Source: Craspedostauros australis (taxonomy: Eukaryota). Taken from it: 64,000 nucleotides of DNA. Below are positions 12,301 to 43,200 of the stretch, piece after piece. The stretch's first letter is position 1. Every line of letters starts with the position of its first letter. The position numbers and the translations under genes are program-made. The DNA lies in NCBI GenBank assembly GCA_030167865.1, contig JALAGF010003940.1, positions 1-64,000 on the forward strand, given 5' to 3'. The notes beneath the pieces are model-generated. The model was not told the DNA's origin and did not search any database. It was given only the letters and a program-made list of their open reading frames with translations.

Positions 12301-13293
12301 AAGCTCGAGATTGGTAGTCTTGGTTGTTTCCAATGATCGCTGATTGCGTAGCAGGCGACGTCCGGAGATATCCGAATTCTCGGCGCTGTCCGCGGTGAGC
12401 TCCTGTCCCAGAACCGTGACGGCGAGCATCTCCACATCGTGCATCTCGCCAGGAGGTGCGTAGTCTCGCAAGAAGTCGAAGGTTTGGGTCTCGAACTTGC
12501 GTTCCGCGTCTTCGTTCAGCTTCTCCTCGAAGCCTTGCAGCGTCAGGACGATGGTTGCGGTCTTGGTCTTCATGATTTCGATGGAGGGCGACGAAGATGG
12601 CAGGACCGAAGGTGAAGCTGATGGCACCATGGACGGAACTGTGCTGGGATGATTGGATGGCTGTTGTGTGGGGTCTGTTGAAGGCATAGCGCTGGGAGTT
12701 GTGCTCAGTTGGATCGTCGGGTGCTGCGTTGGGCTCTCGGATGGGGAAGTCGTCGGCGTAGCTGTGGGCGCGGAACTGGGAATGACAGTGGGATGAACGG
12801 AGGGAGATCCTGTGGGGCTTGTGGTGGGTGCTGAAGTCGGCGAGTTCGATGGGGAATCGCTTGGCGCGTTTGTTGGCGCTGCTGATGGCGTCGGGGTCGG
12901 CGAGTTCGATGGGTGATCGCTTGGCGCGTTTGATGGCGCTGCTGATGGCGACGGGGTCGGCGCCAATGTTGGGCTCGCCGTGGGGTGGCTGGTCGGTGTT
13001 TCCGATTCAATGAAAGATGGATTTGCCGACACTGTAGGCTCGCTTGTTGGCATGATGGACGGAGCTTTCGACGGTTGATTTGAAACGCTCGGGGCCGTCG
13101 TATCCGGGATAAAGAAGAGCAAGCGTTTGGCACCCAGGCGCCTGGCAAATCGGCGTGTCTTCTTCTGGAATCTGTTCTGATTGGATTCTTTTCGCGTGCC
13201 GCGCAACTTTCCCAGGGACGGTGTGTTGGGCCAGGCCGCGACATGCGACACAAGCATGAGCAACCATAGCACGTTGCTCGCAGACTTCATCAT
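9319..13293 (-). CDS. Type I membrane protein: signal peptide, PS/PT mucin-like stalk, SEA-like module with RRL, TM, long disordered tail, C-terminal PDZ
   Basis: 1324-aa ORF with hydrophobic N-terminus (VLWLLMLVSHVAA), PSxxPT repeats, SGRRLLR and TM VALALVCSFFALLVAALASYYAI followed by KKRLRRK. PDZ signature APSGPIGIVVDTTKYGPAVHSIKSTSPVLGLINRGDLIVSLD. Confidence 0.85.
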   Translation of the reverse strand: MMKSASNVLWLLMLVSHVAAWPNTPSLGKLRGTRKESNQNRFQKKTRRFARRLGAKRLLFFIPDTTAPSVSNQPSKAPSIMPTSEPTVSANPSFIESETPTSHPTASPTLAPTPSPSAAPSNAPSDHPSNSPTPTPSAAPTNAPSDSPSNSPTSAPTTSPTGSPSVHPTVIPSSAPTATPTTSPSESPTQHPTIQLSTTPSAMPSTDPTQQPSNHPSTVPSMVPSASPSVLPSSSPSIEIMKTKTATIVLTLQGFEEKLNEDAERKFETQTFDFLRDYAPPGEMHDVEMLAVTVLGQELTADSAENSDISGRRLLRNQRSLETTKTTNLELFVRVVGDVVRGVAPKHFSFEDYLTKTFENNWAAYTQRLSQIDTTFEHLNEDDNPKASVQQGDSSETLKVALALVCSFFALLVAALASYYAIKKRLRRKTKEIGWEPFNQATRSESSSEEGSGDGLIPFDDVHETIDTPPEPLQLQIENGDASSKDDPIHGMSVCGSEAKRKSVSPSVLSMGSNEQYGIHDANNAHGGHMGGNINSNVNNNVNSNVHASNNTNESNKIKMNKKWMTPRFGRGSVDGFDTESNNDPPQHMDSMNFAALNKAGRHSLDPDADFAPPYFPRQDGHGIGSQDSEDSGNNDGVQLLSNKNKRRTSSDRYGENKDGDDDEEDDDAQYFNNKSSGNGNKRRSPANRAAAAATTSTTTQSESVSFVPKAFANTPLGSVVNSTANSFFGMFSNANNAEGVGANESTKPTNTSRRDDNGSSGGNTNSKQTHRNGSSNGRKQYVHMSEAALSQHSAMHGATKVNAIGSETTSSYWQAKQKQQQQQQQQKVNVKQGTKSEASSGSSLYPRTHPHRPSMNKHEQQAPSVDEKNRGTKQYGSSATATATQQQQQRQPQSPAKWNQRPLFDTATEVGWDDDDNRNDVEEFGSRRSDFSLEIAKEPRLGNWEETAMGGLSVVQSKPAKTMDAASRTQTMPTMEPDTPMSSMFEKSSYFSTNANPPSSVTGGRRPSSFHNFNNQEQPSIAYQHPTRQRKRDQPQRQRQRETPAYASTRISYISSSSASEDDSEYDGGRSGYAQYAFQTGNNTGSHNYNGHDYNNRNTHNYNSDTYGTRSNTHTHSNSNGGASNSTSHNNRYSRNSDSQPDRHGAANPSPRLSEEARSTFSLGARPMNDHEKKYYKHDKLNVAGGDAQSKNRESRGGSDHSSNASGSRYRQYQQQLRQQEQQQEQAGEDIVPASLSHQENLYDIFAPSGPIGIVVDTTKYGPAVHSIKSTSPVLGLINRGDLIVSLDDEDTRSMTAAALTRMLAKKSRQRERKITLIAVNRF

Positions 13294-14507: not shown

Positions 14508-17111
14508 TTACTTCGATGATGTGTGTCCGAAGTCGGTTCGAGCTGAAGAGTACTTCAACTGGACACCGAAACTCTTAGTCTTCCCACACCCGCCACAGTC
14601 AATACCCACGTCCAACACCGCCTTCCAAGCGGTGGACTTACCGATCGGCATCGTGATGTATGGCTCAAGGTGGGTCTCATCAGCTTCTGCTTCTGCTGTG
14701 GCTGCATTTCTGGCTTCCTCTTCGATTGCTTCCAGCTTTTGTTCGATCATGGCTTCGAATTCTGCGACAGCACGATCACCAGCAACTCTTTTTGCGTCGC
14801 TTTTGGCCGCATCAGCATCGGCCTGGCTTATCGTTCGATCCACAAGGCTTTCTGGTCTGCCTGCTACGCAATACAAGCGATCGTTGCCAAATGGAATGTG
14901 GAGGAGCTCGTGAAGGACCTTGTTCTTGGTGTCGCGGATGGATTCGTTGGAAATCTTATCGATTGTGTATTCCATTACCTGGATGCAGATGGTGACGAGC
15001 TTGAGGTTCTTCCACACGATCTTGTTGCCAACCTCTTCCTTTTGAGCAACCACGACGGACACGTATCCGTCTGCCAAGTTGCTGTTGCCTTCTGCGACGC
15101 TTGCGATTGGAGGGTGGAACGCCTGTGTCCCTTCCTCCAGTGTCGGTCTTTCGATGATGGCGTTTCGCAGGTCCCAGAGTCCCTTGAGGTAGTCCTTGTC
15201 GATGGTGAGCGTTGCTTCATCACTATGCAGGAGAGGGGCATACTTCTGGAGTTCATCAGTGTTGTTGGGGGGATCAGGATTGCTGAGTTCGACCATCCAA
15301 CCTTCCAGGTCACCCCAGTAGGTTCGGTTCTGTCGCTGCTGTACTTGTTGCTGCTCCTGTTGTGGATGTGTTTGCCCCAGCGACAACTGCATGGGTGACT
15401 TCTGGAGGTACATGCCCTTCATGGCAAACTCTGATGGAAAAGCAACAGGGAACCATCCGCGAAGCCCTTCCCACGATTCTGCAATGTCCTTGTCCACGAA
15501 TGGAGATGTGACAGCATCACCATCTCTCACTTCGGGTGCGTACATCGCAGCGCCATCCTCGAGCATCGATTTCAGATCCTTTCGATCTGTTGCCTCAACG
15601 GTCGTGGCTGCAGCTGTCACGCTGGAGATGAATTGGACTGTGAGCGCTTCATATGCGAATGGTGTCGTCTCCAAACCTTCATCGAGATGTGCCATGGCTT
15701 CTCCACCAGCGATGATCCAGCTACAGAGTCGCTGCATGGCAGGATCCATGAGGAAAGGGTACATCTCAACTCTCCCGTCCTCCTGTTCTGCCATCGTGGA
15801 GAGATCTGCGAATGATTGGATAGTCAGGAGCCCATACTCGCCAATGAGATCGTGTATCTCGACGCGGTCCTCACCAAAGTGTTGGAAGTGGATGGAATCG
15901 TTCAGAACCTTCTCTCGGATGGAATGGGCATCCTCACCAGGTGACACCTTGATCTTTTGCTGGAAGACGAAGGCAGCGTAAGCACTTGCCGCAACCTGCT
16001 GGCACGCGTGTGGAGACTTCCACAAGGACTCCATAGCATGGCTTTTGCAGAAGTCCTTGAAAACAGCCGTGGCAACCTTGGCTTGATGGCGGGGATCATA
16101 ATACAAGAAGTTGTTGGTCGCAAGTTGGAACACCAAGGCAGAGGTCATTCTTGAGTTGTGATGGACGATATCGTTGAGGAGGGGATATTCTGGAAGCTGT
16201 TGATAGGGTGGAAATTTGTTCTGACTGTCTGGATACTCTCGGCAGAGAACGTTGTAGACCTCCTCAACCTTCCTTTGGGCAATTGGTTGGAGTTGCTTGA
16301 AGTTGTTAGGCAAGCTTCCTTGCGCGTCACTCTGGAAGCATGTACCTGCAATGGAGAACACCACCTGCAGTGATTCCTTCTGCGTGTTGATCCACTTGAT
16401 CTCATCGTGACATTTTTCACCTTTGTCTGGGTTGTTGCATCCCGTCATGATGAATGCGGCAAGATCCTGACCAAGATCTTCGTCGTTGCGAATGATCTCA
16501 TTGATGAGGTTGGGTTGGGATCCTGCTTCATCGATGGCGACGACGATTCGCACCATGTCTTCCTTGGTGCGGTGGTGCTTGATCATGTCAGCGATCTGGG
16601 CAAAAAGAGCTCGGATGCTCTTGTCTTGATCCACGAGCTTGTGAATACTTTTCTTGAGACAGATTCGTGCTTCACGTCGTCGAGCAGCGCCGCGCTTAGC
16701 AGTAGGAATGTCCTCGTCGACAACCAGTTGGATGGAGAAGGCAGCATCTCTTGAGTACGCGCTCGCTGCGAGTTCGGCTGTCTTGCCGGTCCCGCTGGCA
16801 GAGCAGTACAGCAGCACCAGATCACTGTCTGCCTTTTCCATGTACAGCTGCTGGGGCGATCTTCCATGTCTGGCTTGATGTCGGAACTGAGGGTTGCCAA
16901 TGGAGAAGACCTGGCGAGAATGATACCAATCGCCGTGTCTGGTGCAAACTTTCACTTGATGGAGTGTTGGTGTTGTCTTTTCACGGATGGCATTGTGCAA
17001 CTTGTTGATGATGGCATCTTGGAGTGGCACCGGTGGGCTTTCGTTGAGGGTTGAGAATCCTGTGAATGATTGCTTGCTGCTCTTGCTCTTGAGCTTGTTG
17101 TTCTTCCCCAT
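14508..17111 (-). CDS. P-loop NTPase + degenerate PD-(D/E)xK nuclease-like protein (Crinkler/RHS-type-like), 867 aa
   Basis: ORF 14508-17216 with first ATG at 17111 (MGKNNKLKSK). Motifs: SDLVLLYCSASGTGKT, IVVAIDEA, VVFSIAGTC, VYNVLCREY, HHNSRMTS, TTPFAYE, SNLADGYVS, TICIQVMEY, RLYCV. Clear paralog of the 1-3239 gene. Confidence 0.88.
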   Translation of the reverse strand: MGKNNKLKSKSSKQSFTGFSTLNESPPVPLQDAIINKLHNAIREKTTPTLHQVKVCTRHGDWYHSRQVFSIGNPQFRHQARHGRSPQQLYMEKADSDLVLLYCSASGTGKTAELAASAYSRDAAFSIQLVVDEDIPTAKRGAARRREARICLKKSIHKLVDQDKSIRALFAQIADMIKHHRTKEDMVRIVVAIDEAGSQPNLINEIIRNDEDLGQDLAAFIMTGCNNPDKGEKCHDEIKWINTQKESLQVVFSIAGTCFQSDAQGSLPNNFKQLQPIAQRKVEEVYNVLCREYPDSQNKFPPYQQLPEYPLLNDIVHHNSRMTSALVFQLATNNFLYYDPRHQAKVATAVFKDFCKSHAMESLWKSPHACQQVAASAYAAFVFQQKIKVSPGEDAHSIREKVLNDSIHFQHFGEDRVEIHDLIGEYGLLTIQSFADLSTMAEQEDGRVEMYPFLMDPAMQRLCSWIIAGGEAMAHLDEGLETTPFAYEALTVQFISSVTAAATTVEATDRKDLKSMLEDGAAMYAPEVRDGDAVTSPFVDKDIAESWEGLRGWFPVAFPSEFAMKGMYLQKSPMQLSLGQTHPQQEQQQVQQRQNRTYWGDLEGWMVELSNPDPPNNTDELQKYAPLLHSDEATLTIDKDYLKGLWDLRNAIIERPTLEEGTQAFHPPIASVAEGNSNLADGYVSVVVAQKEEVGNKIVWKNLKLVTICIQVMEYTIDKISNESIRDTKNKVLHELLHIPFGNDRLYCVAGRPESLVDRTISQADADAAKSDAKRVAGDRAVAEFEAMIEQKLEAIEEEARNAATAEAEADETHLEPYITMPIGKSTAWKAVLDVGIDCGGCGKTKSFGVQLKYSSARTDFGHTSSK

Positions 17112-21117: not shown

Positions 21118-21187
21118 ATGCCTGTAGCTCAATGGTAGAGCACCAGGAATTCTCACTGAGGTTCCAAGTTCAAATCCTGGCATGGTA
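21118..21187 (+). pseudogene. Degenerate tRNA or tRNA-derived (SINE-like) head with Pol III A and B boxes
   Basis: TAGCTCAATGGTAGAGC forms a D-arm/A box with a GCTC/GAGC stem. CCAAGTTCAAATCCTGG forms a T-arm/B box at tRNA-like spacing. The acceptor and anticodon stems pair poorly and the region is CpG-depleted. Confidence 0.6.
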
Positions 21188-24153: not shown

Positions 24154-27100
24154 CTACAACGGCTGATCTTGCAGGTTGAGAAGGTACGTCCCGGTTTCCC
24201 CAGCATTCAATGGATGGATGAAGATGTAGTACGTCTCGCCGCGCAACGAATCCCACCACACCAATCCGCACGGCGTGTCGTTGCCGGCGATGCATTCCAG
24301 GTTGCCACACAGATCGTTGCTGGGCAGTTCGCGGAATACGGTGATTTGAAGGTCCAGCGACGTCAATTCGGAGCAAGTGTCGATGGCGGTGAGACGGTTG
24401 GTACCTTCCATGCGGTACCAGTCGCCCCAGGGCGAGGCGTAGGCCGACCGGCTGCAGGTGCCCTGGAAGGTGTTGAAGTCCAAGGCCATGTCGGTGGGGT
24501 ACGGCAAGATGACGCCGACGTCGTTGGACCCGTCGACGGTCAACGTGCCGGCATCGGCGCAGGCATCCTGGACACGGAACAGGTCGGTCGGTGATACGCT
24601 TGGGGACAGTGTCGGCGCGGACGTCGGTTGTGCCGTGGGTGCTGATGTGGGATTGCTGGTTGGCTTGCTTGTCGGCATTGTTGTGGGTGTGCTCGTTGGT
24701 TTGCCTGTCGGCATCGTCGTGGGTGCGCTCGTTGGCATCGATGTTGGATTGCTCGTTGGACTGCTGGTCGGCACCGACGTCGGGGCTGCAGTGGGACTGG
24801 AAGTTGGAGCGACTGAAGGTTCCGAGGATTGCAATCGAGTGGGAGTCGCCGTGGGCACAGAAGAAGGTGATACGGACGGCGATGCGGAAGGTACAGAGGA
24901 AGGTGACGCAGACGGCGTTGCGGTGGGTGATACGGACGGCGATGCGGAAGGTATGGAGGAAGGTGACATAGACGGCGTTGCGGATGGTACAACGGTCGGC
25001 GAAGTGGAAGGTGCCCCGGATGGTGCATTGGACGGTTGGAAGGTGACAGTTGGTGAGATGGAGCCAAGATGGGATGGTTGCATCGACGGCACAGTGGTGG
25101 GTGGGTACGTACTTGGCTGGGATGACGGCGATAGCGTGGGTGATGCCGTGGGCGCTGTCGACGGCACCGTGGACGGTGTGTCGGACGGTGCCACAGACGG
25201 CAGGGACGTCGGCGAAAACGTCAGGTCGGTCTCGACCGTCAAGACGAAGTTGCCGACTCTCTGTCCGTATCCATGCACGAGAATGCGGTAGACGACATCG
25301 GGTTGCGTTTGCCACATGACGAAGGATGCGGAACCGCAGGCGGATTGGTCGTTGCCAATCACGCACGTGAGGGCGCCCTGGCAATCGCCGGAGAAGACGC
25401 TGATCTGCGTGTCGAAGTTGGTGCGGTTGTCGCACGTGGTGGCGGAAATGGCGGCGCCGTTGCCCACGACCTGGTACCACACTCCGGGTGCTTCGCTGTA
25501 GGTGGCGTCACCGCAGGTTCCGCCGAAGGCATCGGTATCGTTTGGCGCGGTGACTGGTGGGATCTTGCGGATGCTGCCCTCGACTGTGACCGAGGTGGAC
25601 GTGCTGAAATCCAGCATGGATGCGTTCTGGCAGAATTCGCGCGGGTTGTAAAGGTACTGCCCTGGCGGCACGTCATCGGCAATGATGAGACCAAATTCAA
25701 ATTCATCCGCCAAGCGTGCCGTTGTCACATTAGCGTCCGCTTGTAACGTGCGAGAACTCTGCTGCTGCCCACGAATGTGACGAAGATCGCCACTGATGCC
25801 ATTGTCAGCGTTGATTGGCACGGGGGACTCGAGCAATCGCCGGGACGTGGTGGACGTGGCATCGTCGTCCTCCTGCGGACCATGGATGATGGCGCTGTAC
25901 GACTGATTCGTCATGCTCTGAAAACTGATGATACGTCCCTTGCCTGTGGGACACAACTCTTCCTCGAAGGCCACACATTGCAAGACACTGGTTGCATCGC
26001 CATCATCGCCGCCGCACTTGCTGGTGCTGTTGTTGATTGCAGTGTTGATGGTGACGACGGAAATGCGAGCATCGTACTTGGTGGTGTCGCTGCACGTGGA
26101 GAGGGTGATGCGGTTGCCCGTTCCCGTGAGGTCGTACCACAGACCGGGCAATGGGTTCTGCGTGTCCAACTCGCCGCTGGGCAGACAGGACAGTTTTGGG
26201 ATTGTGGAATTGGATCCATCATTCGCCGCGCGCAACGCCTCCTCCATTTCGTAGGACGAGCCGATGGCCTCATTCGAGGAGGACTCCTGCTCCTTGGCCT
26301 TGTCGCACGAGAAGTGATCCTGCGGCACGGGGTGCATCTTGATGTTGAAGACGCCGCGCTGTTCACGATATCCGTGAATGTAAATGTAATAGAGCTTGTC
26401 GACGACGGACGTGAAGGTGACCTGGCTCTGATCGTCGCAGAACTGGTCGTTGGATGCACGGCAATCGAGCTCTTCGCAGGCATTGTTGGTGATGGAGGTC
26501 TGGAACAGGGTGAGCTGCGAGTCGAACGTGGTGGATGGCTCCGACGGCGGCGCGTCGGGGTCGTTGCACGTGGAGATGGTCCACACGCGGTTGTCCCCGC
26601 TGAATCTGTACCACATGCCGAGCCCGTTGCTGACGATCTCGGGCCCGCACACGGCCGTGTCCTCCGAGACCGTTGCCAGAGCAGCCAGGGTGGTGCCGAT
26701 GACTTTGATGGGATCGTCTTGCGTGACTGCGGCGCTGGTGGTGATGGGTGTGGAAGGATCAGTGTCGATGGGAATGGCGTTGGGACAATCGACGTTGGTG
26801 TCTGTGGCGTTGAATGACTCTGTCGGCGACGTGGAGGGCATGTCAGTGGGTGCGCTGGTGGGCACCGAGTTGGTGTCGCCGATCGATCTGCTGGTGCTGG
26901 GACCGTCATCGTCATCATTGCCGAGCAGGAAGACGAGGGAGACGACGATGCCGACAATGATGAAGATGACGATGCAGAGCAGGATGAGGACCCATCGACG
27001 TCGCCTCCTTCGCACTTTGCGGTCGGCCATCTCGCGCTCGAAGGTGACATCGTACTCCTGCGCCTTGATGGTGTTGTTCTGCGCCTGCTGCTGCACCGCC

Positions 27101-27621
27101 TGCTCTGCTTCCTCCTTGATGTGCTCCACCTCCCACAGAGCCAGCTGGTGTTCCTGCGTCCCGTTGGTGAGCATGTTGCCGTTGCTGGGGCCGTTCCCGC
27201 TGCCGCTGTTTCGCAACACCACGGGCTTGGCCTCCGCCAACCCGGTCTGCGAGGCCGGCAGGAACATGGTGCCCTCGCCCGGCGCTTTGGGCACTATGGC
27301 CGATTGATTGCGCGCAGCAGCGTCATACTCACGATCACCATCGTGCTCGCTGCGGCTGGTGGCATCGAAGCGCTGGATCTGCCTCTCTTCGCCATTCTCT
27401 ATGCGATTGCCGTACTGATCCTCGTCGACCACCTGCATGCGCTGTTCCTCCTGCTCGAGATACGGGCTGTAGTTCTCCGACGCGATCTGAGGCCGCTGCC
27501 TCGTGCGTCCGTCCTGCACGTGGAAGGCTCCGGGCACGACGTCGCCCGTGAAGGCCACGCGGGCGCTGGCTGGTGCCAACCGCAGATGGTCCTTCTTGTG
27601 CAATGCCTTTTGTCGCGACAT
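24154..27621 (-). CDS. Type II membrane protein with four Cys-containing PPC-like beta-sandwich repeats and a PS/PT stalk
   Basis: 1155-aa ORF. RRRRRRW followed by a hydrophobic TM near the N-terminus. Four copies of C..A..I...G.WY...G......TC.....D..(I/L).(V/L)F...C..L.C...ND..C. RRLL and RTLQ motifs. Long PSxxPT tract at about 24590-25220. Confidence 0.85.
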   Translation of the reverse strand: MSRQKALHKKDHLRLAPASARVAFTGDVVPGAFHVQDGRTRQRPQIASENYSPYLEQEEQRMQVVDEDQYGNRIENGEERQIQRFDATSRSEHDGDREYDAAARNQSAIVPKAPGEGTMFLPASQTGLAEAKPVVLRNSGSGNGPSNGNMLTNGTQEHQLALWEVEHIKEEAEQAVQQQAQNNTIKAQEYDVTFEREMADRKVRRRRRRWVLILLCIVIFIIVGIVVSLVFLLGNDDDDGPSTSRSIGDTNSVPTSAPTDMPSTSPTESFNATDTNVDCPNAIPIDTDPSTPITTSAAVTQDDPIKVIGTTLAALATVSEDTAVCGPEIVSNGLGMWYRFSGDNRVWTISTCNDPDAPPSEPSTTFDSQLTLFQTSITNNACEELDCRASNDQFCDDQSQVTFTSVVDKLYYIYIHGYREQRGVFNIKMHPVPQDHFSCDKAKEQESSSNEAIGSSYEMEEALRAANDGSNSTIPKLSCLPSGELDTQNPLPGLWYDLTGTGNRITLSTCSDTTKYDARISVVTINTAINNSTSKCGGDDGDATSVLQCVAFEEELCPTGKGRIISFQSMTNQSYSAIIHGPQEDDDATSTTSRRLLESPVPINADNGISGDLRHIRGQQQSSRTLQADANVTTARLADEFEFGLIIADDVPPGQYLYNPREFCQNASMLDFSTSTSVTVEGSIRKIPPVTAPNDTDAFGGTCGDATYSEAPGVWYQVVGNGAAISATTCDNRTNFDTQISVFSGDCQGALTCVIGNDQSACGSASFVMWQTQPDVVYRILVHGYGQRVGNFVLTVETDLTFSPTSLPSVAPSDTPSTVPSTAPTASPTLSPSSQPSTYPPTTVPSMQPSHLGSISPTVTFQPSNAPSGAPSTSPTVVPSATPSMSPSSIPSASPSVSPTATPSASPSSVPSASPSVSPSSVPTATPTRLQSSEPSVAPTSSPTAAPTSVPTSSPTSNPTSMPTSAPTTMPTGKPTSTPTTMPTSKPTSNPTSAPTAQPTSAPTLSPSVSPTDLFRVQDACADAGTLTVDGSNDVGVILPYPTDMALDFNTFQGTCSRSAYASPWGDWYRMEGTNRLTAIDTCSELTSLDLQITVFRELPSNDLCGNLECIAGNDTPCGLVWWDSLRGETYYIFIHPLNAGETGTYLLNLQDQPL

Positions 27622-29285
27622 GTTGTGTTCCTTCTCTTGTCTTCACGTATCGCACTATAATACTATTCTATGGAATAGTACAATGGTATAATATGATAGT
27701 GTCTTGGTACTGATTGCTGTGGCGTCGCCCTGAGTATTGGTATTGTATGGCAGAGTAGAGCACGGCAGAATGATGGCAGAGGTGCTGTCGATAATTGTGG
27801 TCCTTGTGTAAGTATGAGTATGAGTATGGATCGCTGTTGCTGTTGTGGTTGCTATGTTGCGGTATGGCTGATGAGGAGATGGTGATGAAGAAGCAGACCA
27901 AACGAGTGAGTGCTTGGTTCGTCTGCGCACTTTTTATGACACCTCTCTGCTTTGGAGCCGTTGGCGTCTTTGCGACTCCTCCTGTTCTTGGTCGGTTGGT
28001 TGATTGATGACTGGTTGACAAGTTGTTGCCTTGTGTTGTGTGGCCGACTGGCTCTTCTTGTTCGTCCACCGAACGGAAAGAATCAATCGTGTGTGGCAAT
28101 GCTCTTCCGCTGATGCACACAGGGGGGCCTCTCTCGACGTGGTGGAGGTGCCGCAGCAGACGGAAGGTGAAGATAGAGTATGCACGAGAGAAACCCAGAC
28201 TCGATTCCTTCACTTTGACTCTTGATCCGAATGCTTGGCGCCGTGGTATCTATCTGCAGTTCCTGCCTTGTTGTTTGGCAATTGGGGCGAAGCAAGATGA
28301 TGATGATGATGGAGACGGGAGTGAGAGCTGTTGAGCTTCCGCTCGTTCAGAGTCCGACAGATCGTTCTCTTTTTCTTCCCACCAACGCTTTGTCCACAAC
28401 TTCGACAACTCGTGTGCGTTGCAAACCCATGTGGCGCATGTCCGTCCAGAAAATTGGCCACCAGCGATCGTTGCACGCAAGCGCGCCGGCCGGTCCGGCG
28501 ACAATTGCCAGTCACGAATATTCATTCGTGAGAGCGGAGAACTTTCTCCTCGGAGTATCAGTCACTTCTCTTGTTCTTTCGTTTCATGAACTCGAAATGG
28601 CGGTGTTTCTTGCCTGATGCCGTTTTGCAAAATCCCAAATCCAACGCGTTCGAGCAGAAGGGAGGTGATTCACTCTTTGAATCCGAAGAAGCTTCCGAGT
28701 TCCTGTGTCACATGTTGCTTCACGATCGGACTGGTGGGAACTCCAGCCATCACATGTTCGCAAGGCAATCACCTGCAGATGTCGTCCCAGTGATGCCATT
28801 GCGGATCAAGATCAACGGATCTTTTGTCTCCTTGTTGGCTGGCTGCATCTGCTCGTGATCTCTCTCGATCATCGCACATCCCATTCCACTCGACGTGAGC
28901 AACCATCTCTTGCCGACTGTTCCGACACTCACCCAATCTCGACCAAGGCTTTCACGACAACATTCACAGTGGTTCGTGCGATACCGCTATACTCGTGTAA
29001 CATTATATAATAATGATGTGTTTGTGTTGATTGTTACGTATAGTATGCGTGGGAATATATACAAAGTGAACCGCCGTCATGCCTCGCATGCGGCAACGAT
29101 CCCCATTCCAATGCACCTACATTATCCGTGTGTGCATGTCCACGTCCATGTGCGCATTGTGTTGTGTACCATATTGTGTATTGTGCATGTGTGTTGAGCA
29201 TATAATACCTCGCTGCTCGTACATATAATAGTCGCAGAGACAATGCTTCCCCATCCATTCCAGAGACTGACTTCTCTCTCTCTCT

Positions 29286-32200
29286 CTAGAATTCCGGCAC
29301 CTCATCCGGACCAGCGTTGAAGCACGAGATGGTGGGCTCAAGGACCTCCTTGGACCAGACCGTCACACCCGTCGTGTCGCTCACGGCATGATCCCGCGCA
29401 GTCGCTGCGTCCGTGTTGAGCACCAGAATGCGATCCCCCATCACGATGCTTTGCCCGATCAGCTTGGACAGCTGCTGGCGGAAGTGCGTTGTGGCGATGC
29501 GGGCGATGTGGGCCTTCTTGATGTCCCGCACGCGCCCCTTCGAGCTCGTGCCCCACGACTTCAGATCCTCCAGCAGCTCCTTCGTCTCCTCGATGTCCTT
29601 GCGGATGTCGCCGGTGCGGAACACGCTCGTGTCAAACCTGTTGTTGGCATTCTCGGGGTCGAAGCCTGCGACGGTGCCGCGCGACGTCACGGCGCCGAGG
29701 CGGGACACCATCTCGTTGACGTCCTTGTTGCGCAGGTCGCTGTAGTTCTTGACCTGAACGATGTCGAGGCGGTACAGGTTGTGCTCCGGGTCCTTCACCA
29801 GGACGAACAAATCCGGTCCCTCCGACAGGGGCACGCCCTGCCGGATGACGATGGAATTCACATGCTGGCGACGCTCGTTACGCATCAGCTCGGCGATGTT
29901 GGTGAGGTCGGCCTTGTGCTCTGGCGTGGCCAGATTGAGGCTGTGCTTCAGCGTGTAGTTGGTGCACTTGAGCGCCCACGGTGCGGACAGGACGTACTCC
30001 TTCGCCGGGGTGCGGTCGTCGGCAATCTCGAGCATGCGTCGCATTTGGCACGCCACGATGTTGTTGAAGACGGTGCCCTCCGTGGGGAAGTGGCTGATAC
30101 CGCGGCATGCCAGCATCTTCATGGCGGCCGAGGCTTCGATAGGGTCCTTCGTGTTGATGCCGGCCTTGAAGATGGTGCTGTTCGTGCTGTCTTGTCCCTT
30201 GTACGCGTTGTTCAGAAGCGGGCTGGTGGTGATGTCCATCTTCGTGGCTTCGATCATCTTGTGGAGGGAATGGTGGAAGAAGTGATGGAAGGACTCGTCG
30301 AGCAACCTTGACGGCTGATCGGCCTGGATCGTACCCAATCCGCTGATGCGGGCGAAGCGACGGACAACGTAGTCCATCAGCAGGCTGCTGTCGAATGTCT
30401 TGACCAGACGCATGGCGTACCCGTCCTCCTCGTAATTCGAGTTCGGCCTGCTGTAGCTGGTCGGGGCTGCGAAGTTGTTGCCCAACGTGCTGGTGGCACC
30501 ACCTCCGAAGCCGCTGTAGGTGTCGTTGCTGCCTGCGAAGGAGTTCCTGGTGACCTTGACGACATCGAGCTTGAGGGGCGTGCCCTCCGATTCTGGGACC
30601 GGTCTGAGCATGTCGCTGTTGGCAATCTTGTGAATGCCGAGCGACGCCATCCGGGCGTTTTGGGACAGCGCCGCCGAATAGAGGCCTTGAGCAAGGAGGC
30701 CGGAGTATCGGATGTTGTCCAAGCGAACCTGCTCCGTCTTCATGATAGTCGTCTTGGATGGATCCGTGTTGAGGAAGTCGACATCGTCCGGCATCTTCAT
30801 GTGATCCAACGCGCTGCCGACGAAGACGAAGCCGCAGTTCTTGGCCATCTTGCGTTGCTGCACGAGCTCGAATTTGAGGTCGCGGTGGATGTCGACCAAC
30901 GCCCGTGCAGCGTCCATGTTGCGGTTGGCGTCGTCGATGATGACGATGAGGTCCTTGGGCAGCATGACGTCGTTGTCCTCGAGCCAGGCTTCGGCGGGAC
31001 CGGACAGAGCCTCGCGGATCTGGTCGAAGAAGACCGTCTTGGCCCAGTCGTTGCGACCGGTGAAGCTGTCCGTCTTGATCTTGCGCACGACCTTCATGAT
31101 GTTCTCGATGCCAGGCTGCGTCAAGATGTCGTTGGTGTCGACGTACTGGAAGACCTCGAGGCACAATTCCCTGCACAGGGCATCCTCCTCGGACATTTCG
31201 AATTTGGGCGCGGGACCATCTGGGAGCTTGATGTAGAGCTTGGGCACATCCGGCAGGAGCTTCTTCGTGGCGTAGACCGTCTTGCCGCTGCCGCTCTCGC
31301 CGGTAAGCAGCACCGCGCTGGACTTGTCGGGCTTTTCCATCATCTTGCTGACACCATCGCGTGCAGCAAAGACGGTGACCATCTCGGGATCGTACGGCAA
31401 TCCATCCTTGAGGATGGTGGTGGCATTCTTGAGGATGCGCTCGAGCTTCGTCTCCACCATGCGAACGGGATCATGGATGACGCCCGGGAGGTTGTCCTGG
31501 AACATGGCCTTCCATACGTCCATGTTGGCGACGCCCTTTGCGATTTCGTTGATGGAGACGGCCCATCGATTGTCATGATGCTGGATGACGATCTCGGTGA
31601 CATCGTGCTCCAGCATGACGTGCTTGATGTCACGCAAGCAGATTGGCTTGGACGACTTCGTGTTCGGCAGGCAAACGGTGTGGGGTTTGTCCTGGATTCC
31701 CTTGTAGTGAAAGAAGAAGAAGACGTTGCCCCAGGCGTTGTCGTTGATGAGATTTTGGACGGTGTAATCCAGGAGGTACATGATGTCGGACTCGATGCCG
31801 CCGCCTTTGGGAGGTCTGGGCTGCGCCGCCGAAAATGGGGAACGGCCGGTCCTGACCTGCTGACGCCCCGGTCGACGTCCGAAGGGCATGAGCTCGGCTT
31901 CGACCTCGTCAGAAGCGGTGCGTTCTGGCGCTTTGGCGGTGGCCCACGTCTCGATGGTCTTCTTCGTCTTGAGGTAGCTCTGCAGGAAGGTGCGCTTCTG
32001 CACATCGCCCCAGCCGTACGCCTCGAAGACCTTGGTGAAGAAGGCGATCTCGTTCTCTTCGAACGGTGGCTTTTCCTGCTGCTGCTGAGGGTTGCGGTTG
32101 GGCTGTCCTGGGTGTCCTTGGCCCATGCCCCCGCCGACGCCTCTGGGAGCGGTGGCCCGGGATGCCGCGATGGATGATGGAGAGGTGTGGGCGTTGTGGG

Positions 32201-32291
32201 CGGCGCGTCCCATCTTAGTCAGAGCAGGCGTGACAAACCCATTTGTCATCACCAAACTCGCAGCGACGATGGCCGCAGAGAACAACTTCAT
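29286..32291 (-). CDS. P-loop NTPase + intact-looking PD-(D/E)xK nuclease (Crinkler/RHS-type-like) with predicted signal/plastid presequence, 1001 aa
   Basis: First ATG at 32291 gives MKLFSAAIVAASLVMTNG|FVTP. Walker A LLTGESGSGKT, Walker B LIVIIDDA, FVFVGSAL, SQNARMA. Nuclease-like EGPDLFVL...IVQVKNY. Strong C-ending codon bias. Confidence 0.88.
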   Translation of the reverse strand: MKLFSAAIVAASLVMTNGFVTPALTKMGRAAHNAHTSPSSIAASRATAPRGVGGGMGQGHPGQPNRNPQQQQEKPPFEENEIAFFTKVFEAYGWGDVQKRTFLQSYLKTKKTIETWATAKAPERTASDEVEAELMPFGRRPGRQQVRTGRSPFSAAQPRPPKGGGIESDIMYLLDYTVQNLINDNAWGNVFFFFHYKGIQDKPHTVCLPNTKSSKPICLRDIKHVMLEHDVTEIVIQHHDNRWAVSINEIAKGVANMDVWKAMFQDNLPGVIHDPVRMVETKLERILKNATTILKDGLPYDPEMVTVFAARDGVSKMMEKPDKSSAVLLTGESGSGKTVYATKKLLPDVPKLYIKLPDGPAPKFEMSEEDALCRELCLEVFQYVDTNDILTQPGIENIMKVVRKIKTDSFTGRNDWAKTVFFDQIREALSGPAEAWLEDNDVMLPKDLIVIIDDANRNMDAARALVDIHRDLKFELVQQRKMAKNCGFVFVGSALDHMKMPDDVDFLNTDPSKTTIMKTEQVRLDNIRYSGLLAQGLYSAALSQNARMASLGIHKIANSDMLRPVPESEGTPLKLDVVKVTRNSFAGSNDTYSGFGGGATSTLGNNFAAPTSYSRPNSNYEEDGYAMRLVKTFDSSLLMDYVVRRFARISGLGTIQADQPSRLLDESFHHFFHHSLHKMIEATKMDITTSPLLNNAYKGQDSTNSTIFKAGINTKDPIEASAAMKMLACRGISHFPTEGTVFNNIVACQMRRMLEIADDRTPAKEYVLSAPWALKCTNYTLKHSLNLATPEHKADLTNIAELMRNERRQHVNSIVIRQGVPLSEGPDLFVLVKDPEHNLYRLDIVQVKNYSDLRNKDVNEMVSRLGAVTSRGTVAGFDPENANNRFDTSVFRTGDIRKDIEETKELLEDLKSWGTSSKGRVRDIKKAHIARIATTHFRQQLSKLIGQSIVMGDRILVLNTDAATARDHAVSDTTGVTVWSKEVLEPTISCFNAGPDEVPEF

Positions 32292-33796
32292 GGTGCCTGA
32301 TGCGAACTGTCTCTCGTTTTGTGTTGTTGATTGCTTGATTGATCTTGACCCTGAGTCGATCTGGATTGATCTGAATTGAATTGCAGGATGAGAGTCTGCG
32401 TCACTCGAGAGGATGTTTGTTGATTTGGTTTTGTGAGTGCCAAAGTTGTACTCGTCGTTGCCCTTTTTATGATATGTCTCCAGCAGCAGCTGCGACGAAT
32501 GGTGCAAGTGCAACTGCAACTGCAACAAATGAATGAATGGCCCAGTGAATGAATGAGTGTGTTGTCACCTGGATACCTCTCTTTGCTGTCTCCGTATTGG
32601 CAGCTTGAAGTGCTCAGCTCTGCTCAGCTCTACGATGGTATGCGTACAGTGACGTACTATACTGCAACTCTTGGTTCAATCCAATGCGATCCAGTCCAAT
32701 GCCACGGAACGCAATGCGATACTCGGCTCTCTCCAATGCGATGCTGCGATGTGATGTCATGCGATTCAACGCAACGTAATGTGATGAATGCTGTCTGGTG
32801 ATGATTTCTTTGGCGCTGGCGGATGCAGATGCTGTTGCCGCCAATTCTGTTGCCTCTCCCGCCACTTCGATGTGCGCCATGTGACTGGCCTTTGTCTGTT
32901 GACGTCGCCCGCCTGGTTGGCGGGTGGGTGCGTTTGCTGTTGCTGGCTTTGGCTGTTGATGTTTGACAGGTGTTGTTGCCGTTCGTGTTCGCATGGGTGT
33001 TTGGTTTCTTTGGTGGTTGGTGCGTTGTCTCGTTCATTTGTGCGGTGTTGTTGTATCTTTGTCACCCGCGCGTGTCGCGTGTGGGGTATCTGTTGATGTA
33101 TCGGATCTCATTTTTGGGTCATCTTCGTTTTGATTGGTCGACACTCAATCCATCCTCACACCATCAATGACGTCAGTTGTCGTCAATCGCGACATTCGCC
33201 GAACGCGCGCCGGGTTCAGTCTCAACCTCCAGTTTAACCTATTTATAACGGTCGAGTACAACACGCGCCACTCTTCGTACGACACAGACGCTACGTGGAG
33301 GGAAGATTCGAAAACAAACATCGGTTCGAAATCAAATGGCAACAAACAGATGGCGACAGATGACGAGAGAGAAGAAGAACAGCAACACTCCAATCACATC
33401 GAAAGAGGAGGCCGTAGCCGTGAACTGCTCATGCCAAGGCTTCTGCAGGAGCATCATTGACCAGCTTCAGCTCGAGTTGCATCTCCAGCCATTTGCACGA
33501 GGCAAGAGAGTGCTACTGTCCGAGTATTGGTACTCTGGTATACGAGTACTCTATTCGAACAATCGTCGTCGTCGTCGTTGTTGTTGTTCTCCAATTCAAC
33601 AGCGACCCATCTACAGTCCACCGGCCGTTCATCACCATCGCAGAGCGCCCCGAGCTTGCCTCCGGGTCAGATCGAATCGGATCGCACGAGACGTCCGCAG
33701 TCGAGAAGGATTGAGCTGATGCTGGGATTGTCGCTCGTCGAGAAAGCAAACTGACTCAATCATAAACCACACCGAGCAAAGGATCAACGCTTGACG

Positions 33797-35931
33797 ATGG
33801 CAGGCAGGAAGGCAGGTCCAGGTGGCCTGCGGGCCGCATTCGGCGCGACGCCGCAGGCACTCAGCATCTACCGCATCAGCCTGGGGATGCTGCTCACCTC
33901 AGAGCTCGTGCTCAGGTTTCAGTTTCTTCATGCCTTCTACACAGATGAAGGGTGCGTTTCATCAATGTCCGATCCGTCATGCTTATCAGGCATGCATCCG
34001 GTGGACCTGTGCATGCGCTTGCGTTTGCGTTTATATTCATCTGTTCGATTATGCTTTGAAGAGCGTTGCTCCAAGTGGCGGCCACCAACAAATGCCCTAC
34101 GCTGACAGTACTTTTGCATCTGCAACATTCATTATTGTGTATCACCACGTTCCCTCAACGCAATCAATTGTCGACCGTCCATCCACCAACGAATTCATCA
34201 ATCTGTACATCCATACACAACGGCGTGCGTGTGGCGACATGACCACTCCACCAACGCACGTATCACGCATTCCACAGAACGATGCCGCTTCATTTGCTTC
34301 TGCCAAGAATTGACACGCTATATCGATGGTTTTGTATCCACTGCCATTTCGGGACGTTATTCCAACAGCAGGTGCTGCTGGCGATTCAGGTCATCTTTGC
34401 GGTCATGTTCACGCTCGGTTACAGGACGAAGTTGGCGTCAGTCGTTTCGTGGTACATGTACTCCAGTGCCATCTTGCGAAACACATGGCTGTATTTTATC
34501 CTGGATCGCTACTTCTTCTACCTGCTGTTCTACGGAATGTTCCTCCCGCTCTCCCAGTGCTGGAGCGTCGATGCTTCCATGTCGAAGTCACCGCAGTTAT
34601 CGAACTCGCCACCTTCATCTGCATCAATGGCGTCATCAAAGGACCAAGGCCAGATGGCCGGCGAATCCAAAAGCAACGACCCACAACCAACAGTTTCGAA
34701 GGCAGGAAACGGTGAACCGAGCGGAGTCTCTGTCATCGTATCGCCCGCGACTGTGACACTCAAACTGCTGGTGCTTTGGATCTACCTGGATGCTGGCGGC
34801 GGCAAGTACATGGACCCGCTGAAGGGCTGGACCTTTTACGCCGATCCACTCCCAGCACTGGATACCTACTGCCGCCACACCTTCATGGCGAGATGTCTAT
34901 ACGCGATCCTGGGTCCGATGGGCCTGCGGTTGCTGACGCCCACCGTGGTGTGGGTGGAACTTCTGTCGGCTCCATTAGCATTCGTTTTCAGCTATGTGGG
35001 CAACGCGAAGATGACCTACGCTATGATTGGGATCATTTCGTCGTTGCATTTCGGTATCTCCCTCACCATCCGAAATGCTGTGCTGCTGAGTTTCGTTGCG
35101 ATTGTCTCCTGGGCTATCTTTCTGCCAGTTGGTTGGAAGGAGTCGACCACATCATCAAGCAGTTCGGCAAGACCGCAGTCTGATGACGCCGCCGATGATC
35201 ACTCTCGGTCTCAAATGACACCATCAACCACAACAGCAACTGCGTCAACCACGACCACCACGACAACGAACCAGCTTGCTCGTAGTCTGATCAATCCTTC
35301 AACACTGATCATTGTAGCCATGATATCGGCCAACGTCTGGTTCGAGACTGTCGGTGATTGCACATCTGGACTGAAACGCAACATCTTCGCAACTCTCTTG
35401 CAGAACAGATGGAACGTGTTCATCGGCGCAGAGGAGTACGTCACGTGGGAGATTGCGCCAGGTCGTCTGGCGGATGGCTCCATCGTGGACGTTTGGGGTC
35501 GACGGGATGAAGTCGAGTGGACGATGCCGGGAACTGGGGCACCGTGCACTTCCACGGCAAGGCCCGGCCGTTGGAGATCGTTTCCGTACCTTGCTGAGCT
35601 CGACGAGGAAGACAACCACATCCTGTGGGAGTATCTATGCATGCAGTGGGATGCCGAGAACCTGGTCGATGATCCAAAGAATCCGCATCCCGAACGACGT
35701 TTGCTGCGCTACAACTTCTTCATGCTGCAGGCGGATGTGCTCCCGAACATGGGGTTTTCATCGACCAAAAAACGGCTCGTCCATTCTCACGAGTGCGGGC
35801 AGACCTGGCAAGATGTGGTGAATGAAAGACGGCACCAGGCTGGGAATGAAAACGAGGACGAAAAGCAGCGACAACAGCAGGAGCAGTTTGGCAGCATGCT
35901 GAGCAGCGGTGATGGCGGCGGCGACCTGTAG
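33797..35931 (+). CDS. HTTM-domain polytopic membrane protein; exons 33797-33951 and 34278-35931
   Basis: ALSIYRISLG...FYTDEG|TMP joined across a GG|gtgcgt...ccacag|A intron. Also LGYRTK, LRN, multiple TM helices, LHFGI, LQNRWNVF and GRWRSF. Confidence 0.8.
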
Positions 35932-40266: not shown

Positions 40267-43200
40267 ATGGTGAAGCGCAGCGTGGCGTGCGGCGGACAGC
40301 GCCGCTGTCCACGCAGTGCTGTGATAAGCGCCATCGTACTTCTCGTTGGCTGGGCGGTGCCATCGGCAATTGCATCGTCGATTGATCTCAACGAAGCTGT
40401 TACCAAGCCAGGGCATGAGAGATTCGCTGTCAAATTCATCAAAGCCAACGAAGTGCCATCGGTCTTGTCATCACGAGGGATAATGGAAATGAATGAGACC
40501 GCCAAGAGTTCCGCCAAGAGTCCCGCGAGCAATCAGACTGGCGCTCCCAGCGGCAATGTGACGGATGAGTCAGAATCATCAATAGGGGAAGAGACAGCAA
40601 CCAACACAACAGCCGACGGCCCATTTCCAACAGAAGATAGTGATGGAGTGGAGGAGGTCAACCACAATTCTACAGCATCCGCGCAGCCATCGGCGGGAAG
40701 TGCGAGCCGCTTTCCAACTCAGCTACCAAGCAACCAGTCGCACAGTCCAACTGGGAACGCCACGGCAGATACAACTCGGAGCACGAATGCGACCTCAACT
40801 CCCACCTTGAGAACCTCTACAACTCCTACAGCGATCCCCACCGCACAACATGGCACAAACCGGACGGCAGGACCGACAGTTGGCATCGACATTCCCTCGG
40901 ACCTGCCATCGGACATGCCGTCACTGGTGCCATCCCAGATACCGTCCACCAAGCTCGGTGGGATTGGCGCGCGCCCTGACGACCCTTCGTCGACATCATC
41001 GTTTCCACCCACGATGGCGTTCCGAGCGCCGCGATCGCCCACCGCTGTGCCGACTCTATCATCGCGGCCGTCCAGCCTACGATCTGCGTTTCCATCGCAG
41101 GGGCCGTCGTCGACACCCTCCGTGAGTGGCCAACCAAGTTCCTCTCTGTCGTCAGGCCCATCAATACTCCCGACAGAGAGCATAGGCCCGAGCGGCGTGC
41201 CATCTTCGTATCCATCACAGTCGCTGAATCCCTCTGCCAGTTCACAGCCAAGCACGCTGCCTAGCATGGCACCGTCCACGAATCCTTCCGCGAACCCGTC
41301 GTTGTCTGCGCTGCCTTCGACATCTCCAAGCGCGCATCCTTCCACATCGCCGTCACGGTCGCCGTCTCAGTTCCCTTCGTGGCATCCGTCGAGCACACCT
41401 TCGATGCTGCCGTCGGCCACGCCATCATCCGACCCAACGATGACGCCATCTTCACCCCCATCGGTGTCGCCATCGAAAACGCCCTCCGAGCATCCCAGTG
41501 CATCTCCATCGGTGATGCCATCGTCAGTCCCGTCGTCGACGCCAACTCTGACATGTCACGATAACTCAACGTATTCAAGTCCAATCATTGGGAAGCTGAA
41601 ATGTGAGGATCATGGCGACATACCGTGCTTCATGTGGCGCGAACTTGGCATCCTCAACACGGAGGAGCTGGGTGATCTGATCAACAGCTGTCCCGAGTCT
41701 TGCAGCATCCCCTGCGGCGCCTTCCAGAAATACTCCATCTCTGTCGGGTTCCACATCTCCGGCGTTCCTGGATTGCTCAGCCCAAAGTCGATGCGGGTGC
41801 TGGAAGAGGTGTCCTTCAAGTACATGACCAACTTCATCCAAGGCTCGGAGGCCGATGGAACATTTGGACTTGACGCGGTTGAACTCAAGGCGCAGAGCCT
41901 TCGTGAGCAGTCTTCAGCAGGACGCCGTCTAATGCACGATCCCGCGACCGTCGCCACGCAGGCCGAGATGAAGATCGCCGCACATTCTGCTCGCAGTACG
42001 TCAGTGAGGACACGGAGACGAACGCAAGAGGAGCTTCTTTGGGTCAACTGCCAATTCCGAGGCTTCTCGATCGGGCTCTCAGACGAATCGCTCACCGACG
42101 CACTTGTGAGGGGGATCGACAGTCCTGGTTACGAAATGGCCATCCAAAACTCCAACGATACCGCTTTCGTGCAGGCGCAAATCTTTCAGCCATCGCAAGA
42201 TCCGACGTTTGATGCCGACGATAGCTCCTCCAACAGAGATGGAGCGAGCACCGCGACCGTCGTGGTGGCAACGCTGGCATCCATCAGCATCTTTCTGATT
42301 TCGATAGTCGTGGTGCTCTATCACAGAAGGTCCGGCAGATGGATTCCACCGCTGAAGGAGCCACCGAGCATGGATTCTGAGATTGGGTTGAACAGCCCAG
42401 CGAGCTTGTCCATGGAGAGATGGATAGGAAGCGTGTCGCAAGAATCGGACAGCATGCTGTCATTCCAGGAGTCACCCGCAGTCCAATCGAGCTTCAGCGG
42501 ACGGCGCTTGCTCCGGATACTGAGCGGAAGCGCAGGCCGCAGCCAGTCAGACACCGACAACGACGATTCCGACAGCCATGTGGACGCAATCGAAGAGTCT
42601 GCAGCCGCCATCGTCATTTCGCCCATGAGCGACAGCAGCGACGAGACGGCAGCGCACAACAGAGGGAGACATGATACCCACACCGTTGCCAACAGCAACA
42701 GCAACAGCAGGAGAAGCAGCGGCAATATCAACATCACCATCCCCGCTGTGATCGCCAACAGCAACAGCGCCAGCAGCCATACGAGGAATGGAATGCTGGT
42801 GGAGAGATATGATATTGGAAAGAACGAGGATGCGCGTCGCGACGGCAACGATCCCAATGTCGTCACCCGTAGCAACAATGTGATAAGCTGGGATGCCAAT
42901 GCGGGTGCAACCACCAGCGGACCCGCTACTTTGTCTACCATCATCCCTCCCATGATCGTCATTGACAACATCGAGAAGAAAACGGCTGATGCAAGCACCC
43001 GTCCGCAGGTGGATTCGGCTGACGAGCAGAAGGGAGGCTCATCCCAACGCGCCGAAGCATCCACCGAGCTGCTCTCGGTTCTTGCACAACCCAATCCGGG
43101 CATGCTTCTGTAAGTCGTTCGTACGGGTTTGTTCTGTATGTTTCCCGTTGGGCTTGCGGTTGTGTTTGCGCTTGCGCTTGAGTGTGCGCTGGTTCATGTG

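Follow-up and report, generated by a model that had tools for sequence, protein, structure and literature searches.

The first 64,000 nucleotides of contig JALAGF010003940.1 of Craspedostauros australis (assembly GCA_030167865.1), referred to below as the window, carry on the reverse strand at positions 29286–32291 a gene whose product, P0001, begins with what looks like a diatom-type plastid presequence and continues with a P-loop NTPase and a C-terminal domain of probable restriction-nuclease fold. The explanation we favour, with a probability of roughly 0.55, is that P0001 is a nucleus-encoded protein of nuclease fold, gated by nucleoside triphosphates (NTP), which would be imported into the plastid and act on nucleic acid there. 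An earlier interpretation made from the letters alone (the sequence-only reading) had likewise described an NTPase-nuclease with a plastid-type presequence, and had taken it for the one intact copy among three in the window. The architecture is supported by the predicted models and fold searches, while the uniqueness turned out to be an artefact of looking at one window with the family unseen.

According to the proposed scheme, P0001 would be encoded in the nucleus of an alga, most likely a diatom, whose complex plastid is of the red type, and would belong to a fast-evolving, multi-copy and undescribed family of marine microeukaryotes. Three parts would make up the core of the family, namely an AAA+/STAND-like NTPase, a linker of helices and, last, a domain of restriction-endonuclease fold with the signature E...H..R / D / QxK; interchangeable heads precede it. 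The head of P0001 opens with what appears to be an endoplasmic reticulum (ER) signal, followed by F at +1 and an acid-free, positively charged stretch, which under the diatom rule would route the protein via the ER into the plastid stroma. There, the AAA+ domain would bind and hydrolyse NTP to drive DNA engagement or oligomerisation, and this would gate the C-terminal nuclease domain on plastid DNA. In P0001 itself cleavage may be weakened, altered or lost, because N743 and Q749 replace a conserved glutamate and histidine on the putative active-site helix; the protein may then be mainly an NTP-dependent nucleic-acid binder. The localisation, substrate and activity in this scheme are what we infer from the features described below.

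The gene, its family and its predicted domains

The gene is complete and intron-free, with 1001 codons and a stop, and its start agrees with that of the sequence-only reading. The ATG at 32291 is the first in-frame ATG past the upstream stop and stands in the context caccATGA. The GC content at third codon positions (GC3) is 0.838, the highest of the 14 open reading frames (ORFs) compared, and the C content at these positions (C3) is 0.504, as against GC3/C3 values of 0.596/0.350 and 0.621/0.330 for two other long ORFs of the window (14508–17111 and 3–3239). The stronger codon bias noted earlier is thus borne out by the counts, while the 'long domestication' derived from it is an interpretation that they do not contain; the bias argues for a live gene. 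The strand opposite P0001 contains open frames of up to 307 amino acids (for example, 29388–30311, forward strand), which in the simplest reading arise from the extreme sense-strand GC3 composition and are not genes. No direct or inverted repeats of at least 25 nt were detected around the gene (27600–34300), and a transposon boundary is therefore not indicated. One contig of a public sequencing run, the kind of which could only be guessed, was placed at the locus: it covers 29101–29260 (160 bases, one letter different), that is, 26–185 nt past the stop codon. No contig of this run matched the coding sequence, and the run bears neither way on expression or on the 5' end.

An exhaustive phmmer search with P0001 retrieved 68 cluster representatives (clustering at 50%; P0004–P0071) at E values of 1e-3 or lower, 28 of them at 1e-10 or lower and the best at 2.8e-28. 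Their identity to P0001 is in the range of 23–34%, mostly 25–32%, over query residues of about 295–560 and 620–995, and in 67 of the 68 the best match begins at residue 275 or beyond, the exception being P0062, which aligns from residue 219. A hidden Markov model (HMM) built from the 68 relatives with the query excluded recovered P0001 with an E value of 4.4e-114 (376.5 bits) in two domains, HMM positions 41–404 and 409–752, spanning residues of about 131–996. The ten relatives whose sources were looked up came from ENA, JGI/IMG and Logan assemblies and from one MMETSP transcript, the ORF of which is complete; these origins are consistent with marine microeukaryotes. On the phylogenetic tree P0001 clusters with P0005 and P0030 (SH-aLRT 95). 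A word-indexed protein search, the index of which is too coarse for identities of 30% or less, found nothing with P0001 and one marginal match with the family profile.

Comparison with curated models revealed little beyond the P-loop. No member passes a Pfam cut-off other than those of generic AAA models. At E values of 1e-3 or lower, just six of the 44 relatives scanned had a Pfam match, in each case to generic P-loop models; at 0.1 or lower, AAA_22 was matched by 31 of the 69 members (best E value 5.7e-8), AAA_16 by 14 and nSTAND3 by 10. One member, P0013, passes the AAA_22 cut-off (33.6 bits), and P0001 remains below the cut-offs of both AAA_22 (15 versus 27 bits) and nSTAND3 (15 versus 27.2 bits). 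The PADLOC model mad8 was matched by 10 of the 69 members; individual PADLOC scans covered 25 members, and in the four mad8-matching ones among them only the P-loop part was aligned. NCBIfam gave scattered P-loop matches only, and a PDB sequence search with P0001 and the family profile gave generic P-loop matches only. The C-terminal half of the family is not covered by any Pfam model, and the family is a ready annotation target.

The full-length AlphaFold model of P0001 has a mean predicted local distance difference test score (pLDDT) of 73.7, with both cores mostly above 85. Behind the presequence, a variable head (residues 73–294; 31410–32075, on the reverse strand like all features of the gene) is modelled at a pLDDT of 55–72 and has no Pfam match; its predicted secondary structure includes a small alpha + beta-beta-alpha-beta-beta unit (residues 166–251; 31539–31796). 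The P-loop NTPase domain follows (residues 295–560; 30612–31409; pLDDT mostly above 85), with the Walker A motif GESGSGKT at residues 331–338 (31278–31301), the Walker B motif IVIIDD at residues 449–454 (30930–30947) and the motif NARM with the near-invariant N545 (30648–30659). GESGSGK[TS] occurs in nearly every aligned member and the Walker B pattern hhhhD[ED] is conserved, with DE in the family and DD in P0001. A VIA-align structural search with this region retrieved NLRP3 (Z 9.0, 237 residues aligned, root-mean-square deviation (rmsd) 4.4), MuB (Z 8.8, 210 residues, rmsd 4.4) and TnsC (Z 8.0, 220 residues, rmsd 4.8), along with many NLR, Apaf-1/CED-4, ORC/Cdc6 and RFC chains, and the top Foldseek match of the full model in the PDB was CED-4 (E value 1.2e-3), with none at 1e-3 or lower. 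These fold matches place the region in the AAA+/STAND class of ATPases. Between the two cores lie a disordered G/S/N-rich insert (residues 578–617; 30441–30560; pLDDT below 50), which is specific to P0001 and which hhalign shows as an insertion against the family profile, and an all-helical linker domain (residues 620–735; 30087–30434) of predicted helices with conserved S/M/Y/F/G/S/A/L positions.

The C-terminal part, modelled separately (residues 620–1001; pLDDT 83.6, predicted template modelling score 0.87), contains an alpha/beta domain (residues 740–990; 29322–30074) that resembles restriction endonucleases in the model and in fold searches. The predicted order is a helix alpha1 (741–757; 30021–30071) carrying N743, Q749 and R752, strands 764–768, 813–818, 828–834 and 839–848, further helices, and a strand 949–958. 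D827 of the GPD motif (825–827), at the 'PD' position (29811–29813), directly precedes strand 828–834, and Q846-V-K848, a Q variant at the '(D/E)xK' position (29748–29756), lies at the end of strand 839–848. This core order, alpha-beta-beta-beta...alpha-beta with D before strand 2 and QxK on strand 3 as predicted, fits the PD-(D/E)xK plan. The predicted secondary structure places PD and QxK, the clustering of which in a model is required by the sequence-only reading, on adjacent strands of one hairpin; judging by the register that it suggests, D827 would face Q846 across a four-residue turn.

Conservation in the family centres on the same residues. The C-terminal halves share an F-E-x5-H-x2-R helix, Q818, G-x-D827, Q846-x-K848 and a terminal EPTIS; among 59 aligned sequences E743 is present in 52, H749 in 55, R752 in 57, D827 in 51, Q846 in 54 and K848 in 55, with the complete E-H-R-D-Q-K set in 41. 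We infer that E743 would be the catalytic acid on alpha1 that completes the metal site. All the motifs named in the sequence-only reading are present in P0001, but Walker A and PD...QxK, which it had taken to be unique to this copy, are family-wide, and its 'intact catalytic motif' holds for D827, Q846 and K848 only, since the helix has N743 where the family has E (52/59) and Q749 where it has H (55/59). P0001 is accordingly N-Q-R-D-Q-K, the sole sequence of the 59 with both helix changes, and departs at further conserved positions (S634D, Y646F and P773A).

When the C-terminal model was compared with 48,161 chains in VIA-align, 17 had a Z of at least 5 and none reached 8, a level below which a match may mean a common arrangement only. 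The top nuclease rows were HamA (Z 6.1, 170 residues aligned, rmsd 4.5), Cdn1 (6.0), N.BspD6I (5.7) and Card1 (5.6), then SduA, AF1548 (1y88) and FokI (all 5.5), followed by R.BspD6I, Can2, MspJI, NgoMIV, PaqCI, Cap4 and AspBHI, and later by LlaBIII (4.6), EcoT38I, Can1, MunI, NucS and SgrAI. By title, about 24 of the best 50 rows are restriction or defence nucleases (Z 4.3–6.1) and about four are CE-clan peptidases. Altogether, the models make a restriction-nuclease fold of this domain probable, and we consider nuclease chemistry in the family a reasonably good expectation.

The predicted N-terminal presequence

The first 18 residues of P0001 (MKLFSAAIVAASLVMTNG; 32238–32291) form a hydrophobic, signal-peptide-like segment. 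Both proxies used for a signal are seen in it, a Kyte–Doolittle maximum over 11 residues of 2.28, at residue 4, and small residues at -3 (T) and -1 (G). It is followed by a transit-peptide-like segment (residues 19–72; 32076–32237) that begins with F19 at +1 and runs for 54 residues without D or E, the first acidic residue being E73; this segment is rich in A/G/P/Q/S/T and has a net positive charge from five K/R residues (K26, R29, R45, R50 and R66). These features are as described in the sequence-only reading. In diatoms, a signal followed by F and a transit-like sequence is an experimentally derived rule for stromal targeting, and a positively charged, acid-poor stretch behind the cleavage site is the signature of a transit peptide, according to PMC4329603. 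With the matrix step of ASAFind alone (Table S2 of PMC4329603; the full protocol starts with SignalP 3.0 NN), the best site within residues 10–45 was G18|F19, with a cleavage-site score of 5.55 and a transit score of 4.71 against a cut-off of 2, in line with the ASAFAP-type match proposed earlier. A stricter rule of our own asks for a hydrophobic region, agreement with the -3/-1 rule, an F at +1 and a stretch of 25 residues that has no acidic residue and two or more K/R; of the 136 window ORFs of at least 100 amino acids, P0001 alone passes it. In the AlphaFold model residues 1–75 are a lone helix followed by disorder (pLDDT below 50), which fits a cleavable presequence. On these sequence features, we regard import of P0001 into the plastid as somewhat better than an even bet.

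The hydrophobic N-terminus was also considered as strand 1 of a ubiquitin-like (Ubl) header, as had been argued for oomycete CRN proteins (PMC5289972); this candidate was dropped, given the low-confidence lone helix and disorder modelled for residues 1–75.

Similar presequences occur elsewhere in the family. Of the 60 representatives starting with M, three others have a signal+F presequence by the strict rule, P0033 (VRS|FAP), P0049 (GSA|FVV) and P0007 (TTA|FLP, reading from an internal Met), and inspection added P0027 (VSS|FSL) and P0004 (VDA|FTV, likewise from an internal Met); ASAFind transit scores of these five range from 4.3 to 5.4, with F at +1. The six presequence-bearing members, P0001 included, are scattered over the tree of 41 full-length-like sequences; their distribution requires six changes, as many as when the labels are shuffled, which suggests that a plastid-type address was gained or swapped repeatedly and matches the interchangeable heads. 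The full catalytic set is kept in four of the other five, the exception being P0049, which lacks D and QxK. Plastid-addressed members with a complete active-site set therefore probably exist even if P0001 is impaired.

If the presequence works as predicted, P0001 would extend into the plastid a class whose other members are treated as effectors, toxins or proteins of selfish elements. The module type and the targeting rule are each known; their combination and the P0001 family were not found in the literature searched. Among the matches listed by bioRxiv and PMC, titles and abstracts revealed no plastid-targeted Crinkler-like or NTPase-nuclease protein of a diatom. To our knowledge, plastid-DNA nucleases of algae with complex plastids are poorly known; the matches listed for Crinkler with plastid and for diatom with endonuclease included none, although no search was aimed at such nucleases. 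The family gives testable predictions as to where its members localise, whether they cleave DNA in dependence on ATP and what the natural replacement of E by N and of H by Q entails.

Points against the proposal and alternative explanations

Several points weigh against plastid import and nuclease function of P0001. At the 5' end, GC3 of codons 1–75 (0.69) is below that of the remainder of the gene (0.82–0.86), though above that of the DNA upstream (0.55); the intermediate value makes coding from the first ATG likely, if unproven, and the in-frame M27 and M56 could serve as alternative starts. The ASAFind matrix is unspecific, with 14 of the 33 window ORFs with hydrophobic starts exceeding 2 in a loose scan, where a nearby F suffices, and F at +1 alone gives 3.25 of the transit score of 4.71. 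For the C-terminal domain, the nuclease-fold matches of the model are middling, all at Z 6.3 or lower, and the top VIA-align row is a protease, RavZ (Z 6.3). A Foldseek search of this model against the PDB gave no match at E values of 1e-3 or lower, its best rows being the poxvirus I7L protease, SseL and HamA and including Ulp1-like proteases. Pfam scans and PDB sequence and profile searches provided no sequence link of the domain to a known nuclease family. Finally, the long branch of P0001, together with E743N, H749Q, S634D and P773A, fits a relaxed or shifted function.

The last point leads to the best-placed alternative, to which we give a substantial though minority share: P0001 could be a degenerate relative with a dead nuclease, which would serve solely in NTP-dependent binding or regulation or be drifting toward loss of function. 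Among the 59 sequences P0001 alone combines both changes on alpha1, its Walker B has DD instead of the family DE, and its terminal branch of 1.53 is, next to that of P0010 (1.57), the longest on the tree, where the median is 0.73. Inactivation does occur in the family, as P0047, P0049 and P0053 have lost QxK and P0049 also D. On the other hand, P0001 keeps R752, D827, Q846 and K848 in an intact frame of 1001 codons that tops the 14 compared ORFs in GC3; moreover, metal ligation or hydrogen bonding is still open to N and Q, and the catalytic role of E743 and H749 is itself putative. We put nuclease activity of P0001 at somewhat under even odds.

In the subclade P0047/P0049/P0053 the acidic pair of Walker B is lost (VVDG/VLDG), and each of the three has lost both Q and K of QxK. 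P0049, which has a strong signal+F presequence, is present on five contigs, which reach 24.5 kb in length. By its sequences, this subclade looks like an inactivated yet retained branch.

Next, and unlikely in our estimation, P0001 could have the same domain plan and no plastid import: the N-terminus would be an ordinary secretory signal with a coincidental F19, and the protein would be secreted or stay behind in the ER or the periplastidal space; it could, for example, be a nuclease toxin that is exported to harm competitors, grazers or parasites. PMC5289972 treats the similar Crinkler/RHS-type modules of NTPase and restriction endonuclease (REase) as belonging to effectors or conflict proteins. 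Several long window ORFs also have signal-like N-termini with no F at +1, suggesting that secretion is common in this genome, and a single F dominates the matrix score. However, the 54 acid-free, net-positive residues past the site bear the transit signature, the signal, F and transit-like sequence together correspond to the experimentally derived stromal rule of diatoms (both in PMC4329603), and the same signal+F combination recurs in five other family representatives, all of which favours plastid import.

Another explanation concerns the other two ORFs compared, P0002 (14508–17111, reverse strand, 867 amino acids) and P0003 (3–3239, reverse strand, more than 1079 amino acids, running off the window). 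The sequence-only reading treated these and P0001 as three copies, of which only P0001 had a canonical Walker A and PD...QxK; P0001 would then be one of three scattered tandem copies with the other two decayed. All three are long, intron-free, P-loop-bearing and on the reverse strand within 32 kb. A comparison of the family profile with the P0002+P0003 pair in hhalign gave a probability of 49% (E value 1.7e-4) over 66 columns around Walker B, a separate 29-column match takes in the N-x-R-M motif, and P0003 ranks second of 264 ORFs for the family HMM. Nevertheless, the HMM E values of P0002 and P0003 among these ORFs, 2.6 and 0.19, are not significant, and BLASTP aligns them with P0001 in the P-loop only (E values 0.082 and >2). 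Comparison of C-terminal sub-alignments of the P0001 family with the pair in hhalign found nothing. Both have S-x4-GKT, which keeps the GK[T] of Walker A, and VVAIDEA, a Walker B of hhhhDE type. The two are clearly paralogous (28% identity to one another across about 830 residues, E value 6e-70) and without a Pfam match, and their pair alignment finds no relatives in the word-indexed search. By sequence, P0002 and P0003 are a separate orphan P-loop family, which may share its NTPase class with P0001, and common descent of all three as copies is decidedly improbable. An alignment made by eye of 'ADGYV...IQVMEY' in P0002/P0003 with 'GPDLFV...VQVKNY' in P0001 was dropped, there being no C-terminal profile similarity.

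Least probable is that the C-terminal domain is a Ulp1/CE-clan-like cysteine peptidase or another alpha/beta enzyme, making P0001 an NTPase-peptidase: peptidases are found in VIA-align (RavZ on top, RickCE 5.0, Lpg1148 5.0 and OtDUB 4.6) and in the best, non-significant Foldseek rows (I7L, SseL and SENP2), and H749, D827 and Q846 with C847 (29/59) loosely resemble an H-D-Q-C set, but residue 847 is variable (V in P0001; A, S, I, G, T or M elsewhere), K848 is conserved in 55 of 59 sequences, D827 and QxK occupy the PD and (D/E)xK positions of the hairpin, and nuclease rows outnumber those of the CE clan by about 24 to four.

Neighbouring reading frames and comparison with known systems

Three other very long ORFs of the window (9319–13293 and 24154–27621 on the reverse strand and 40267–43113 on the forward strand) have signal-like starts and Ser/Thr/Pro-rich repeat tracts, with a PT repeat (Pfam E value 2.4e-10) in the second; by sequence they look like mucin-like or cell-surface proteins. 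A 774-residue ORF at 52655–54979 (forward strand) has a FAD-dependent oxidoreductase (DAO) domain at residues 472–704 and a hydrophobic N-terminus with possible ...RLC|F or ...AAA|W sites, and could be routed to the plastid or into the secretory pathway. A search of the window with Rfam gave a single tRNA match (21123–21182, forward strand; 29.6 bits versus a gathering score of 29), far from P0001.

Among known systems, the Crinkler/RHS-type (CR) effectors resemble the P0001 family in their construction. Their commonest C-terminal architecture is NTPase, helix-turn-helix (HTH) and REase, as given by Zhang et al. 2016 in the summary of PMC5289972; that review regards the REase as the likely toxin and the NTPase as the part controlling it, and derives the module from NTPase-REase pairs that occur in prokaryotes in association with transposons. 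Like CR effectors, the P0001 family has a P-loop NTPase, a helical region and a domain of probable restriction-endonuclease fold in that order, swappable variable N-terminal heads, and a multi-copy, fast-diverging distribution in eukaryotes; the helical linker of P0001 would take the HTH slot of the scheme, a likeness of position alone. Unlike them, P0001 has no match to PF20147 or RHSP (PF07999) at E values of 1 or lower. Crinkler header and RHSP models were also absent at 1e-3 or lower in the 44 relatives scanned and among the best 25 of the 52 Pfam families matched. The bipartite plastid-type head of P0001 differs from CR heads as presented in section 11 of PMC5289972, which does not mention such a presequence. 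Beyond the order of domains, the two are linked only by protein-language-model neighbours of P0001, which are leads; these were clusters of eukaryotic hypothetical proteins (Rhodophyta, Mucoromycota), Crinkler-named clusters at 0.90 (PF20147 in 45% of members), an RHSP/RHS_N cluster at 0.86 and a bacterial AAA_22+Mrr_cat cluster at 0.86. By analogy of architecture, P0001 may be described as built like a CR module without being filed as a CR effector.

A broader possibility, which we hold tentatively and consider less likely than not, is that diatom-like algae have several times, and each time independently, redirected a Crinkler/RHS-like conflict module to their complex plastid, in the six lineages with signal+F presequences. 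If true, a nucleus-encoded, NTP-controlled nuclease system would operate on plastid DNA, possibly in surveillance against foreign or damaged organelle DNA, in a regulated degradation of the plastid genome during uniparental inheritance or cell death, or as a selfish toxin that takes advantage of the organelle.

A D...QxK active site is that of PD-(D/E)xK nucleases of the Mrr and TnsA type. In these, as predicted for P0001, D opens one strand and Q-x-K lies on the strand after it, and, as in most members of the P0001 family, a conserved acidic residue is found on the preceding helix. The Mrr-like AF1548 and the nuclease domain of LlaBIII matched the C-terminal model at Z 5.5 and 4.6. In contrast to this type, P0001 has N in place of the helix glutamate, and the structural Z values are only middling; Mrr_cat was not among the Pfam matches of P0001 at E values up to 1, nor among the best 25 of 52 family-wide.

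The predicted NTPase fold resembles those of MuB, TnsC and NLR/Apaf-1/CED-4 proteins, at Z values of 7–9 over 200–280 residues, and sub-threshold AAA_22, AAA_16 and nSTAND3 matches point to the same AAA+/STAND likeness. Unlike STAND ATPases, P0001 has no NACHT or NB-ARC match at the Pfam cut-off and no repeat sensor domain, and its NTPase is fused to a nuclease-like domain instead of a death-fold or TIR effector.

With the ASAFAP presequences of diatoms, as described in PMC4329603, P0001 shares the hydrophobic signal, the small -3 and -1 residues, the F at +1 and a transit-like region that is hydroxylated, positively charged and poor in acids. Its motif is TNG|FVT and not ASA|FAP, and where ASAFAP proteins bring metabolic or photosynthetic cargo to the plastid, the cargo of P0001 would be a conflict-type NTPase-nuclease.

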